From: Eledone cirrhosa
Lineage: Eukaryota
Reading direction: 5' to 3'
Length of the DNA stretch: 64,000 bases
Assembly (NCBI GenBank): GCA_964016885.1
Contig: OZ024749.1
Coordinates: 2,418,001 to 2,482,000, forward strand
In this document: positions 8,830 to 45,619 of the stretch, piece by piece
Layout: every line of letters begins with the position of its first letter
Position numbering within the stretch: position 1 is the first letter of the stretch
The notes under the pieces: model-generated
Told to the model about the DNA's origin: nothing
The model's database searches: none
Seen by the model: the letters and a program-made list of their open reading frames with translations, nothing else
Program-made: the position numbers and the translations under genes

Positions 8830-9008
8830 CGTAGGTCCCGGGTTGAGTCGGGGATAACCACAGTAAGTAAGGTACTCAATACATGGCAGAGTAACATTTT
8901 TTTATATTATAGAAGGAGCTTCTACAGGACTAGTACTGTTTCATTCAGATGAAATCTTCAGGTTTCATCTGAATGAAACAGTACTAGTCCTGTAGAAGCT
9001 CCTTCTAT
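8830..9008. mobile_element. Foldback element, family B, with hammerhead-like core; also at 1861-1990, 34440-34905, 40012-40200
   Basis: Palindrome 8908-9008; minus strand CTGAAGA-TTTC.ATCT.GAAT-GAAAC-AGTACTA-GTC. Confidence 0.75.
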
Positions 9009-9135: not shown

Positions 9136-9488
9136 CAATATTAAATAAATGGAAACTATATTTATAAAACCATATTTATTTCATTATATATATTTCAGGG
9201 ATATCATATTAACAATATGCTATGCCTTCCTCAGACAAAATACAATATAAACAGTTTTATAGATAAATAGATTCGACATACCGTAACCCACATCGACTTG
9301 CTGCCAAATCAACCTCTTCAAATGCAAGTCGATGTTGTTACGGTATGTCGAATCTATTTATCTATAAAACTGTTTATATTGTATTTTGTCTGAGGAAGGC
9401 ATAGCATATTGTTAATATGATATCCTTGAAATATATATAATGAAATAAATATGGTTTTATAAATATAGTTTCCATTTATTTAATATTG

Positions 9489-23394: not shown

Positions 23395-23710
23395 AGGAAA
23401 AAGTATGACCCCGACCGCAGAGCTCAAGCCGTTTCGACGGCTATTTCTGGACTAAATTAGAATTTTTAGCCAGGTGAATAAATAGCCGAGCTTGTCAAGG
23501 GGGTACTTCCTTATATGGGAAGATTGTAGTTGTGAAGAGGATTGGTTAAAATTTGTTATAAACACAAATTTAGTCCAGAAATAGCCGTCGAAACGGCTTG
23601 AGCTCTGCCGTCGGGGTCATACTTTTTCCTATTTCCCACTCTACTACCCTAAGTATTGAGTACTCTGGTGCGTTATGGTCCATCTGGTTCCTTACCACAT
23701 TTCCTTTGTT
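23395..23710. mobile_element. Family C element with inverted arms, between (TA)n tracts
   Basis: 23395-23458 is inverted at 23566-23632. Confidence 0.85.
23408..23504 (-). ncRNA. Type I hammerhead ribozyme with U3-A8 core variant, family C
   Basis: ACCCC(C)-TTGACAA-G.CGGCTATTT..AAATAGCCG.TC-GAAA-CGGC.ttgagctct.GCGG-TC|GGGGT. Confidence 0.7.
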
Positions 23711-24435
23711 ATATATATATATATATATATGTGGGTGTGTATGTGTGTGTGTGTGAGTGTGTGTGTGTGTATAATTAAGAGACGAAGCTTGTCAAATAGA
23801 ACGGACATAGCTTCAGTCGTTTCATCCCTTACTCATTTACCAATTCAGTTTGTATTATTAAAATTTAAACCCAGCTGGCCAGAGAGCACATATACGTTAA
23901 ACAGTGAGGAAGATGACTTTGTGGGTGAGAGCTTTGGGACTGGTGCATCAGTTTCTGCGGTTCCAATCTGTTGGCAGTGTTCTGAAAGGAGCACTCATCT
24001 GCACTTTACGTAATTTGGCGAGGGATCGTGTCGTCAGCGGGAGTTCGCCTTTCTCTAATGTAAAGATCAATAAGGCATCCCACTATTTTCAGTTGCTAGT
24101 CGCAAGTGACTGTAGTAGTTTAAACCTTCTAGTGACGCGTGACGTCGCATCAGAGAGAAGCTAAACTGACTTGACCATTTTACTGGAACACACGTTGGCA
24201 ATTAATTCATATTGAAAAATATGGCGATTGCAAAAAAACACTCTACCAGTGTGATTTCAAATAGAAAACAAATACAGTACAACAAACAATAAAATATAAA
24301 TCCAATTACGTAAACAAAGTGATGTTATATATATATTATAATGAATTAATACCCAACGGCGTTAATATTAGCCGTTAATATACATAAGGAAAGTATATAC
24401 TTTCAGACGTTCAACCATTTGGCAGGAAGGTATAC

Positions 24436-24476
24436 GATGCTGACGATAGCTAATAAGCTTGAAACTAGTAGTGTCA
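24436..24476 (+). ncRNA. Hammerhead-like motif with poor stem I
   Basis: CTGACGA-TAGCT.aata.AGCTT-GAAA-CTAG-TA. Confidence 0.45.
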
Positions 24477-25163
24477 GTGTTGAACAAAAAGGTGACGTGG
24501 TTGCCTAAACACTGTACGGCGTAATCCGGGCCGTTTGTTTACAAACAAACAAACCGAGCATTATAATAAATGTTCGGTAAACCGTTACGTGCATATATAT
24601 ATGTATGCATGTATGTATATACATACATACTACTGTACGTCTGTATAGATATATGTATGTACGTATACATACTTACATCTAAGTAAGTGTCATACTAAGA
24701 GTGAGAAATGAAATTTCGTTTCATTCTATTCTATATATATATATATATATATGTATAAACACAGATTAAAATAATTTTGAAAACCATACAATACATTAGA
24801 AAGAAAATCAATATTGCTAAGATAACAAAGAATCTTACCTTAGCAAATTTGATAATCGCAAATATCTTCGGGTTTAAAAACTCATTATCAAGGGAGTTTC
24901 CCCGAGAGACTTAAAAGATCAATCGGAGTTGACTTGCTTGTTTGGAGAGCAGATTTAAGTATATATACATATATATATGTGAGAAAAACCACAAATCCTC
25001 CATCTCAATTCTACTTTTGAAAAGCAGAAGAACGGAGAAACCGGTAAAGGAACCAATTAAATATATATATTTAAAAAAAAAGACTCCAGTTGCATTTTTG
25101 ATTTCATCTACAGTTTGATTTCATCTTTCTTTTTTCATTTTGTAAATAAACCTCACTTTCTAA

Positions 25164-40017: not shown

Positions 40018-40200
40018 TGAGATTCTACAGGACTATAACTGTTTCATTCTTTAGAAATCATCAGGAATCATTCCTGATGATTTCTAAAGAATGAAACAGT
40101 TCTGTCCTGTAGAATCTCATCTATATTAAAACTTTTATACTCTGCAATGTATTGAGTACCTTACTTACTGTGGTTATCTCCGATTCAACCCGGAATAACG
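40012..40200. mobile_element. Family B foldback with a hammerhead core on both arms
   Basis: Palindrome centred on tcaggaatcattcctga; CTGATGA-TTTC.taaa.GAAT-GAAACAG.tt.CTGTC. Confidence 0.8.
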
Positions 40201-44395: not shown

Positions 44396-44560
44396 TTAAT
44401 ACAACATTAATGGCCTGCTTTGGTTTTCTTAGCTGTGGTGAGGAAAGTAACTAAAGGGTGAGGAAGAAAGGCAGGGAGCAGAGCGTTGAGGCGGCCATCT
44501 GTCTTGGTGCTGTATTAGCAATCTTAATGTTGGCAATATTTGTTCTGGTGGTGATTGTTG

Positions 44561-44591
<31 letters not shown>

Positions 44592-44592
44592 G

Positions 44593-44674
44593 ACTCCCTG
44601 ATGACGCAATGAATTCTCGACAGTTAGATTACGTAACTGTCTTTATCCCATTGCAGAAACTAATTAGTTGGAGT
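44593..44674 (+). ncRNA. Type I hammerhead ribozyme, family H copy 1
   Basis: ACTCC-CTGATGA-cGCAATG..GACAGTTA/TAACTGTC..CATTGCa-GAAA-CTAATTAG-TT|GGAGT. Confidence 0.85.
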
Positions 44675-45137
44675 GAAAATTTTAGTAAGTAAGTTAATTT
44701 AAAAAAAAATTTTTTTAATTTTCTTATTTTACGTCTTTTATATTATTGTTCTGCATCCTCCTGCATCGAACCACCTAGGTACTATGACATAACCTGTGTA
44801 TTTGCTAGCATTAGCGTACATCTGTACGCATATGTTAGTAGATATACTAAATCCTCTATATTTATCTCCAAATTACTTATTTGTCGAGCAAACCTGCCAA
44901 AACCACTACTAGTTTATTGGTGTGATAGTAGGCTTCTTTCATCTTACCATCCCACTCCTACCGACTAGCCTCAGTGTCACGTGATTGATTCTTTAGAATT
45001 TGCCATTTGACCAGAGACAGCGAGCTTTTCAGTGCATGGAATCCAGTCCCCGCTAGCTGTTCCATCTACCGAATTATTATTATTTTTATATGAGTCCCCA
45101 GTGTCCGCGCATTGCCTGGAGACTTAGCTGAGAATAG

Positions 45138-45219
45138 ACTCCCTGATGACGCAATGAATTCTCGACAGTTAGATTACGTAACTGTCTTTATCCCATTGCA
45201 GAAACTAATTAGTTGGAGT
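45138..45219 (+). ncRNA. Type I hammerhead ribozyme, family H copy 2
   Basis: Identical to 44593-44674. Confidence 0.85.
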
Positions 45220-45278
45220 GAAAATTTTAGTAAGTAAGTTAATTATTAAAAAATTTTTAAAAATTTTCTTATTTTACG

Positions 45279-45324
<46 letters not shown>

Positions 45325-45542
45325 CGAAGGAAATGTGGTAAGGAACCAGGTGGACCATAACGCACCAAAGTACTCAATACTTGAGGTAGTAGAGTGGGTA
45401 ATAGGAACCAGTAAGACCCCGACAGCTGAGCTCAAGCCGTTTCGACGGCTAATTCTGGACGGCTAATTCTGGACGGCTAATTCTGGAGTCCAGAATTAGC
45501 CGTCGAAACGGCTTGAGCTCAGCTGTCGGGGTCTTACTGGTT

Positions 45543-45548
<6 letters not shown>
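45325..45548. mobile_element. Family C foldback with a triplicated 14-mer at the centre
   Basis: Arms 45401-45460 and 45489-45547; gacggctaattctg x3. Confidence 0.85.

Positions 45549-45619
<71 letters not shown>

Follow-up and report, generated by a model that had tools for sequence, protein, structure and literature searches.

A PLE-type non-LTR retrozyme family in Eledone cirrhosa, with genomic footprints consistent with hammerhead cleavage and twin internal priming

Introduction

A stretch of 64,000 nt from the genome of Eledone cirrhosa (assembly GCA_964016885.1, contig OZ024749.1, positions 2,418,001 to 2,482,000; hereafter the window) contains two hammerhead ribozyme motifs that delimit a segment of 545 nt inside a (TA)n tract. 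A first-pass annotation, made from the letters alone, proposed that this segment is a non-autonomous retroelement replicating through a self-excised RNA circle. This raises the question of whether the hammerheads cut in vivo, which form of the RNA is copied, and by which enzyme. Circular RNAs of non-LTR retrozymes and their ligation by RtcB have been described in coral, mussel and axolotl (Cervera & de la Pena 2020, PMC7229834), and animal retrozymes have since been argued to be non-autonomous derivatives of PLEs, a report in which one of nine Xenopus retrozyme dimers was cleaved in vitro and eight were not (Li, Clavereau & Pollet 2026, bioRxiv 10.64898/2026.07.22.740005). Poseidon_Ac of Anolis uses two internal start sites with extension on both strands, by what is predicted to be a PLE dimer, and hammerhead cleavage is not needed for its insertion in vitro (Frangieh et al. 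2024, PMC11167929). The cutting of PLE hammerheads in vivo and the mobilisation of animal retrozymes are stated to be open in the text of the latter two reports and of Cervera & de la Pena 2014 (PMC4209133).

Results and Discussion

Anatomy of the window copy

The insertion consists of a single arm in a (TA)n tract (Table 1). As the first-pass annotation had claimed, two type I hammerheads, identical at every letter, lie in direct repeats (there put at about 150 bp), the predicted cuts lie 545 nt apart, (TA)n is found at both ends and the spacer is non-coding. Each hammerhead is composed of stem I ACUCC/GGAGU, CUGAUGA, an extra C, stem II GCAAUG/CAUUGC prolonged by an 8-bp inner hairpin, an extra A, GAAA, the palindromic stem III ACUAAUUAGU and U17. 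The 545-nt unit folds better than shuffled sequences both in linear (z -4.6) and in circular form (z -5.2). The long hairpin predicted next to priming site B may be a binding site for the reverse transcriptase, and the conserved block downstream, which holds what we take to be an E-box-like word, is on its sequence a candidate internal promoter element. As the copy has no sequence upstream of hammerhead 1, it would, given an internal promoter, depend on read-through to yield a monomer.

Table 1. Features of the retrozyme copy and of its target tract, in window positions.
Feature	Position	Strand	Remarks
(TA)n tract, left part of target	44561..44587		joined to 5'-truncated end of copy
Whole insertion	44591..45288	+	single arm, 698 nt = 1.28 units; 5'-truncated at unit position 467; 3' end is priming site A
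Direct repeats	44591..44743 and 45136..45288		153 nt each, 95% alike, spacing 545
Hammerhead 1 (type I)	44593..44674	+	predicted cut after 44669
Hammerhead 1, stem I	44593-44597/44670-44674	+	
Hammerhead 1, core CUGAUGA	44598-44604	+	extra C at 44605
Hammerhead 1, stem II	44606-44611/44649-44654	+	extra A at 44655
Hammerhead 1, GAAA	44656-44659	+	
Hammerhead 1, palindromic stem III	44659-44668	+	
545-nt unit, cut to cut	44670..45214	+	longest ATG ORF 35 aa
Priming site A, internal copy	44735..44743	+	unit position about 74; TA-like microhomology
Long predicted hairpin	44796..44847	+	just 5' of site B, inside conserved A-B region
Priming site B	44855..44865	+	unit position about 196; internal in window copy
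Conserved block	44970..44994	+	mean conservation 0.93 at unit 301-325
Hammerhead 2	45138..45219	+	same sequence as hammerhead 1; predicted cut after 45214
(TA)n tract at fixed 3' end	45284..45323		terminal site A copy ends at 45288

The hammerhead motif

In fold energy the single motif surpasses all of 200 shuffles (z -3.8). Its minimum-energy fold (-23.1 kcal/mol) is an inactive one, in which the catalytic CUGAU pairs with half of stem III, the active fold being 2.5 kcal/mol worse (-20.6). In a transcript carrying both hammerheads of the window the two palindromes are predicted to pair with each other (P 0.93-0.98), and cross-pairing of stem III is predicted with P>0.5 in 17 of 22 two-hammerhead stretches of the family. 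The swapped stems I of a full double hammerhead are given a P of only 0.04-0.11, and these models favour other folds over the complete double hammerhead.

The C·A mismatch at the base of stem II, earlier listed as a caveat, occurs in 134 of the 142 distinct hammerheads of the family (a conservation partly imposed by the search anchors), which rules out decay of the window copy as its origin. By analogy with PLE hammerheads, in which an extra base between positions 9 and 10.1 is followed by a G10.1-C11.1 pair (Cervera & de la Pena 2014, PMC4209133), the C reads as this extra base. With those hammerheads the motif has the extra base, the G10.1-C11.1 pair, a long stem II, a palindromic stem III and a predicted dimer in common, all the marks of the PLE type. 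It differs in its fixed U17 and in the extra A between C11.1 and G12, just before GAAA, the oddity of the family core; no description of either was found in the main text of that paper.

In 31 chosen hammerheads 96.8% of the stem cells are paired, a value reached by none of 500 shuffles (in a statistic that ignores relatedness) and compared with 32-54% in slid controls, and the second pair of stem II occurs in all four Watson-Crick types. The core letters are almost invariant while the stems covary, the conservation of the core being partly imposed by the search anchors. The comparison with Rfam, where Hammerhead_1 had been expected to be informative, gave no hammerhead match in the whole window at the gathering score, nor in 44400-45600 at E<=10. 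The 51-nt span of stem II put the motif out of reach of a simple hammerhead pattern.

A dispersed retrozyme family

The 29-mer across the cut has 4,189 exact copies in the genome, and whole hammerheads of the wider family number 10,010, with no match for either reversed control. A search of the 3.0-Gb assembly with the element, in which 37 of 2,452 candidates were scored, gave top copies 93-97% alike. Clustering of 75 distinct whole units from the loci compared gave 16 clusters, whose likeness to the window unit is 73-92%; all units are about 480-590 nt long. The longest ATG ORF is 27-51 aa in the six cluster representatives examined, and the circular fold of all 16 representatives is better than that of shuffles (z -1.8 to -7.4, 12 shuffles each). 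Copies are scattered among many chromosomes, and every copy has 5' breakpoints of its own.

Non-LTR retrozymes are recognised by two or more consecutive head-to-tail units that each carry a type I hammerhead, and by the lack of protein-coding capacity, all of which are found here, the last in the window unit and the six representatives. The window copy is one non-LTR retrozyme, and the element class is already known. Nor is its size novel, as had been supposed: the units are longer than the 150-450 bp of the retrozyme range of 2020 and lie within the 51-972 bp reported in 2026 (10.64898/2026.07.22.740005). With the metazoan retrozymes of PMC7229834 (coral 220-245 nt, mussel 350-390 nt, axolotl 330/350 nt) the family has in common non-coding head-to-tail units with one type I hammerhead each, thousands of copies, a structured unit RNA, a dimer-type stem III and a proposed mobilisation by PLEs. 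It differs in its unit of ~545 nt, in a hammerhead of PLE style, in which stem II is long and a C and an A are added, and in the prevalence of short dispersed (TA)n insertions with inverted arms instead of long arrays.

Short-stem relatives with the same stem III were rejected as a route to the parent element, as 29 of the 30 loci inspected (from 39 matches) are family copies with an internal deletion and one is unrelated.

Insertion anatomy and priming sites

Arms were sampled from 57 of the 59 clusters among the first 100 of the 4,189 29-mer matches, not picked by likeness, and counted when at least 78% alike and away from locus edges (n=92). Site A (unit position ~74) is the end of 44 arms and site B (~196) that of 43, while 5 end elsewhere (A or B, 87/92). 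Both ends could be classed in 29 of the 32 sampled two-armed, tail-to-tail insertions, and each of the 29 combines A with B. Over all 166 deduplicated loci, diverged subfamilies included, sites A and B account for the ends of 261 out of 276 arms; of the 91 arm pairs that could be classed, 88 are mixed and three are not. The two sites are 122 nt apart and TA microhomology is present at both.

The insertions have variable 5' ends, fixed 3' ends, an inverted 5' copy and a tail at one end only. Truncated insertions with an inverted copy and a tail on one side are the pattern known from PLEs (10.1101/2021.04.23.441226), and the arrangement fits, by analogy, the Poseidon enzyme of the anole, which starts at two internal sites and extends on both strands. 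Both Poseidon_Ac and the family have two internal start sites that define the ends and the 'tail', use both target strands, insert into AT-rich targets and carry a type I hammerhead. Poseidon, in contrast, is autonomous, its start sites lack homology to the target and its tail measures 30-40 bp as against 122 nt here (PMC11167929). Chlamys elements such as MRC1 (Craig et al. 2021, bioRxiv 10.1101/2021.04.23.441226) are likewise non-autonomous and form head-to-tail multi-copy insertions at microsatellites, with 5' truncation, an inverted 5' copy and a tail at one end; they mostly lack hammerheads, according to the text of that preprint, and their 3' end resembles an autonomous partner.

Of the 279 flanks at arm 5' ends, 209 consist of the inverted arm of the family itself, 42 are TA, 5 are another microsatellite and 23 are of other kinds. 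No shared upstream ORF recurs among these 23, and an ORF with reverse transcriptase (RT) and GIY-YIG is neither present in the unit nor recurrent at the 279 flanks. The window copy is therefore not merely the pLTR pair of an autonomous Penelope element, an outcome that the first-pass annotation had named as fatal to its proposal. Multi-copy, without an ORF and with fixed priming ends, the family is almost certainly a PLE-type non-autonomous element, as far as autonomy is concerned in agreement with that proposal.

In a different model of the tandems, an autonomous PLE left the unit behind as a stranded pLTR, which was then amplified locally in DNA by unequal crossing-over, as proposed for Xenopus retrozymes. 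This model is published, with pLTR homology for 21 PLE matches among 57 Xenopus families (10.64898/2026.07.22.740005), and our own full comparison covered just two of the many PLE families in the genome. It is difficult to reconcile with copies that are dispersed and have their own 5' breakpoints and fixed 3' priming ends, with the lack of a shared upstream ORF among the 279 flanks, or with the persistence of an ORF-less unit over 27% divergence. We hold it to be highly improbable, and for the present-day spread of the family it is largely refuted. The retrozymes of that report and the family agree in size range, in co-occurrence with EN+ PLEs and in non-autonomy. There the evidence is co-occurrence and pLTR homology, and tandems are modelled as local DNA amplification, whereas here no homologous pLTR was found and the insertion anatomy points to tandems arising during reverse transcription.

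In the young subfamily (e.g. L004, L019, L026, L073), 14 of 25 terminal ends at site B have 4-31 TC repeats between the element and (TA)n, compared with none of 41 internal B sites. These repeats could be the stutter of a repeat-adding, telomerase-like enzyme at priming, or reflect the choice of compound (TA)(TC) targets.

Probable genomic footprint of cleavage

One of the 92 sampled arms (at L061) has its start precisely at the predicted cut. A genome-wide count was then made of arms that begin at a chosen base and are preceded there by four non-native letters; it covered six positions, with pass rates that differ between the patterns. The predicted cut gave 23 matches in 21 loci. With the same anchor, starts 5 and 3 nt upstream gave 1 and 0 matches, and 3 nt downstream gave 8 in 7 loci, 3 of them TA joints, which the cut-site pattern does not match; distant controls with another anchor gave 9 at unit position 442 (5 of TA type by their upstream letters) and 1 at 444. 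Eight of the 21 cut-site loci have two arms that both stop no more than 2 nt away from the cut; the arm lengths there are 74, 196 or 619.

The simplest reading of these arm starts is run-off at a ribozyme-made 5' end. They are indirect evidence, on which the hammerhead of the family very probably cuts in vivo, at the base earlier predicted. An analogous footprint is left by R2 elements through their HDV-like ribozyme. For Poseidon_Ac the text reports no reads ending at the hammerhead cut (PMC11167929), whereas here genomic arms end there.

The pile-up could also be a pause of the reverse transcriptase at RNA structure, the hammerhead being a non-cutting structural signal for the PLE protein. 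Such a role would suit the atypical core (extra A before GAAA, U17), the inactive minimum-energy fold, the lack of an Rfam match and the fact that cleavage is dispensable for Poseidon insertion in vitro (PMC11167929). The pile-up, however, falls on the one base that hammerhead chemistry predicts, the counts 3 and 5 nt upstream being 0 and 1, while a structural pause would be expected ~5 nt away, at the 3' edge of stem I. The core letters, moreover, are almost fixed while the stems covary, a pattern to which the search anchors contribute in part. We consider a non-cutting role quite improbable.

Two further candidates were rejected. A transcription-start hotspot at unit position 442, seen in 4 of 87 rows, is without genome-wide support (9 matches, 5 of TA type, with 1 at the neighbouring 444), and microhomology of stem I as the source of the cut-site pile-up predicts upstream letters that occur in none of the 23 matches.

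In 5 of the 32 two-armed insertions (L068, L069, L091, L100, L043) the stops of the two arms lie within 5 nt of one shared unit position, where 0.65 such insertions would be expected. Shared stops also occur away from the cut, which suggests that one RNA was copied by both arms; that of L091 lies on a natural palindrome.

Circular or linear template

An intact cut site is crossed by 72 of 87 arms, two being crossed by 24, three by 4 and four by 1, and the usual template is therefore a circle or an uncut multimer. Arms reach up to 3.8 units. At L264 the two arms are ~2,100 nt (~3.8 units) each, and their six whole units do not differ at any scored column, the closest other locus among those compared being 2.4% away. 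The locus belongs to an unplaced contig of 31.6 kb, in which the units could have been homogenised by assembly. Genomic tandems contain the very junction that a circle would have.

The same element and PLE machinery could operate on a linear template, with cleavage only trimming the 5' end of read-through transcripts and multi-unit arms arising from uncut multimers and from seamless template switching between terminally redundant RNAs. Linear RNA is indeed copied at least sometimes, as the arm pairs of 619+196 nt at L224, L225 and L232 need a precursor cut at one hammerhead and uncut at the next, and arms of 741 nt ending at the cut likewise require linear, partly cut RNA. Template switching occurs: at L236 the family is joined, via short microhomology, to another hammerhead repeat inside one insertion. 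Furthermore, two Neptune-type PLE families of the genome in which no hammerhead was detected also make partial tandems, showing that tandems need no ribozyme. On the other hand, the six identical units of L264 would demand that each arm switch cleanly three times, or that the source array was fresh and uniform, an exact stop at the cut is seen in only one of the 92 sampled arms, and no inverted junction out of 45 is found again at a second locus, a weak argument in that read-through copying might produce such recurrence. Inheritance through linear RNA only would moreover be expected to shorten the arrays in every generation. An exclusively linear template is in our view unlikely. The identical units of L264 favour a circular template, and a circle is probably the usual one; a circle as template for more-than-unit copies has also been proposed for PLE hammerheads (PMC4209133).

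The relationships among units point both ways. Ten of 13 multi-unit insertions are monophyletic, in favour of a circle, and three are not, in a test that left out L041 (two separate insertions) and whose bootstrap was rough and had not settled. Lineage variants, also in favour, are mostly common to both laps (612 vs 52) and to both arms (436 vs 56); private variants, which count against, are mostly unshared between laps (9 shared vs 122 unshared). The median distance within loci (1.6%) is no lower than that to the nearest other locus (1.4%), a comparison uninformative as a test for one template because many loci derive from near-identical sources.

Candidate driver and proposed mechanism

The genome is rich in PLEs. 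Most families are seen only as fragments, the exceptions being two young, TA-flanked, two-ORF families (L131-L139 and L213-L219) with intact RT+GIY-YIG frames of 784 and 796 aa, the first with Pfam matches to RVT_1 and GIY-YIG. Their Neptune-type label rests on a zinc-finger linker as in 10.1101/2021.04.23.441226. Both have kilobase-sized, microsatellite-rich pLTRs; a motif scan found no hammerhead in them, and no sequence likeness to the retrozyme unit was found. Two one-off fusions join the 5' end of a retrozyme arm to the first family, one near its 3' end and one inside the endonuclease region (L063:3186-5940 and L110/L263, the latter on the reverse strand of L263, 6853-8214). The fusions fit template switching, and also later deletion; they are suggestive, and make the first Neptune-type family no more than a candidate driver.

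In the mechanism that we propose, a locus with two or more hammerheads would be transcribed, and two hammerheads would pair through the palindromic stem III, as predicted by folding, and cut after GUU, as the arm starts suggest. The unit-length RNA would then be ligated to a circle, probably by RtcB as found in vitro for other retrozymes, and the predicted inactive fold of a lone hammerhead would protect this circle. A PLE protein, probably a dimer to judge from the work on anole Poseidon, would nick both strands of a (TA)n tract and prime reverse transcription at the fixed internal sites A and B, one per strand, in keeping with the fixed ends and the A+B pairing. Each enzyme would extend for a variable length, up to about four units, after which the two cDNAs may be joined tail to tail, or one to the target, products of both kinds being present in the genome. 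A minority, ~1 in 100 arms, would be copied from linear cut RNA with run-off at the cut.

A retrozyme that spreads as a hammerhead-excised RNA circle copied by a borrowed PLE reverse transcriptase/endonuclease is overall the best explanation, and a fairly probable one. A fuller reading joins to it a single-base cut in the germline and a dimeric PLE enzyme that primes both strands at two sites and rolls round the circle, possibly the enzyme of Neptune-type elements without a hammerhead of their own; this combination is tentative, and we place it slightly short of even. If true, it would document PLE-type hammerhead cleavage and twin internal priming directly in vivo, and the 545-nt unit would be a minimal substrate for both. 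The value of the family lies not in element class or size but in its footprints of cleavage in vivo and of twin priming, which can be counted as run-off at the predicted cut and as strict one-site-per-strand priming, and in a short natural RNA with a ribozyme and both priming sites that is usable for reconstitution. A search of the main text of accessible papers on PLEs and retrozymes found no report of genomic copies ending at a hammerhead cut and no count of strict A+B pairing.

Other hammerhead-like repeats

Next to the copy, in the same tract, window positions 45324-45547 hold a second TA-targeting family, as a tail-to-tail pair of truncated arms whose fixed ends differ and whose joint contains a 14-nt triplication, together with an apparent hammerhead 3' half (GAAA, palindromic stem III, GUC). 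It has matches in at least 41 sequences, and further window copies lie near 23589, 40565 and 51344. A third retrozyme-like family is represented by window positions 24370-24725 and L236:1522-2545, with a 468-nt tandem unit and fixed ends in (TA)n. Its short hammerhead has a U·U at the base of stem II, an ACUAGU stem III and a GUA site, and it is the partner in the L236 chimera. More short hammerhead-like motifs, some in inverted pairs and belonging to at least two other repeat families, are located in the window at 8961, 34846, 40064-40074, 1680, 9234-9390, 31251 and 39854.
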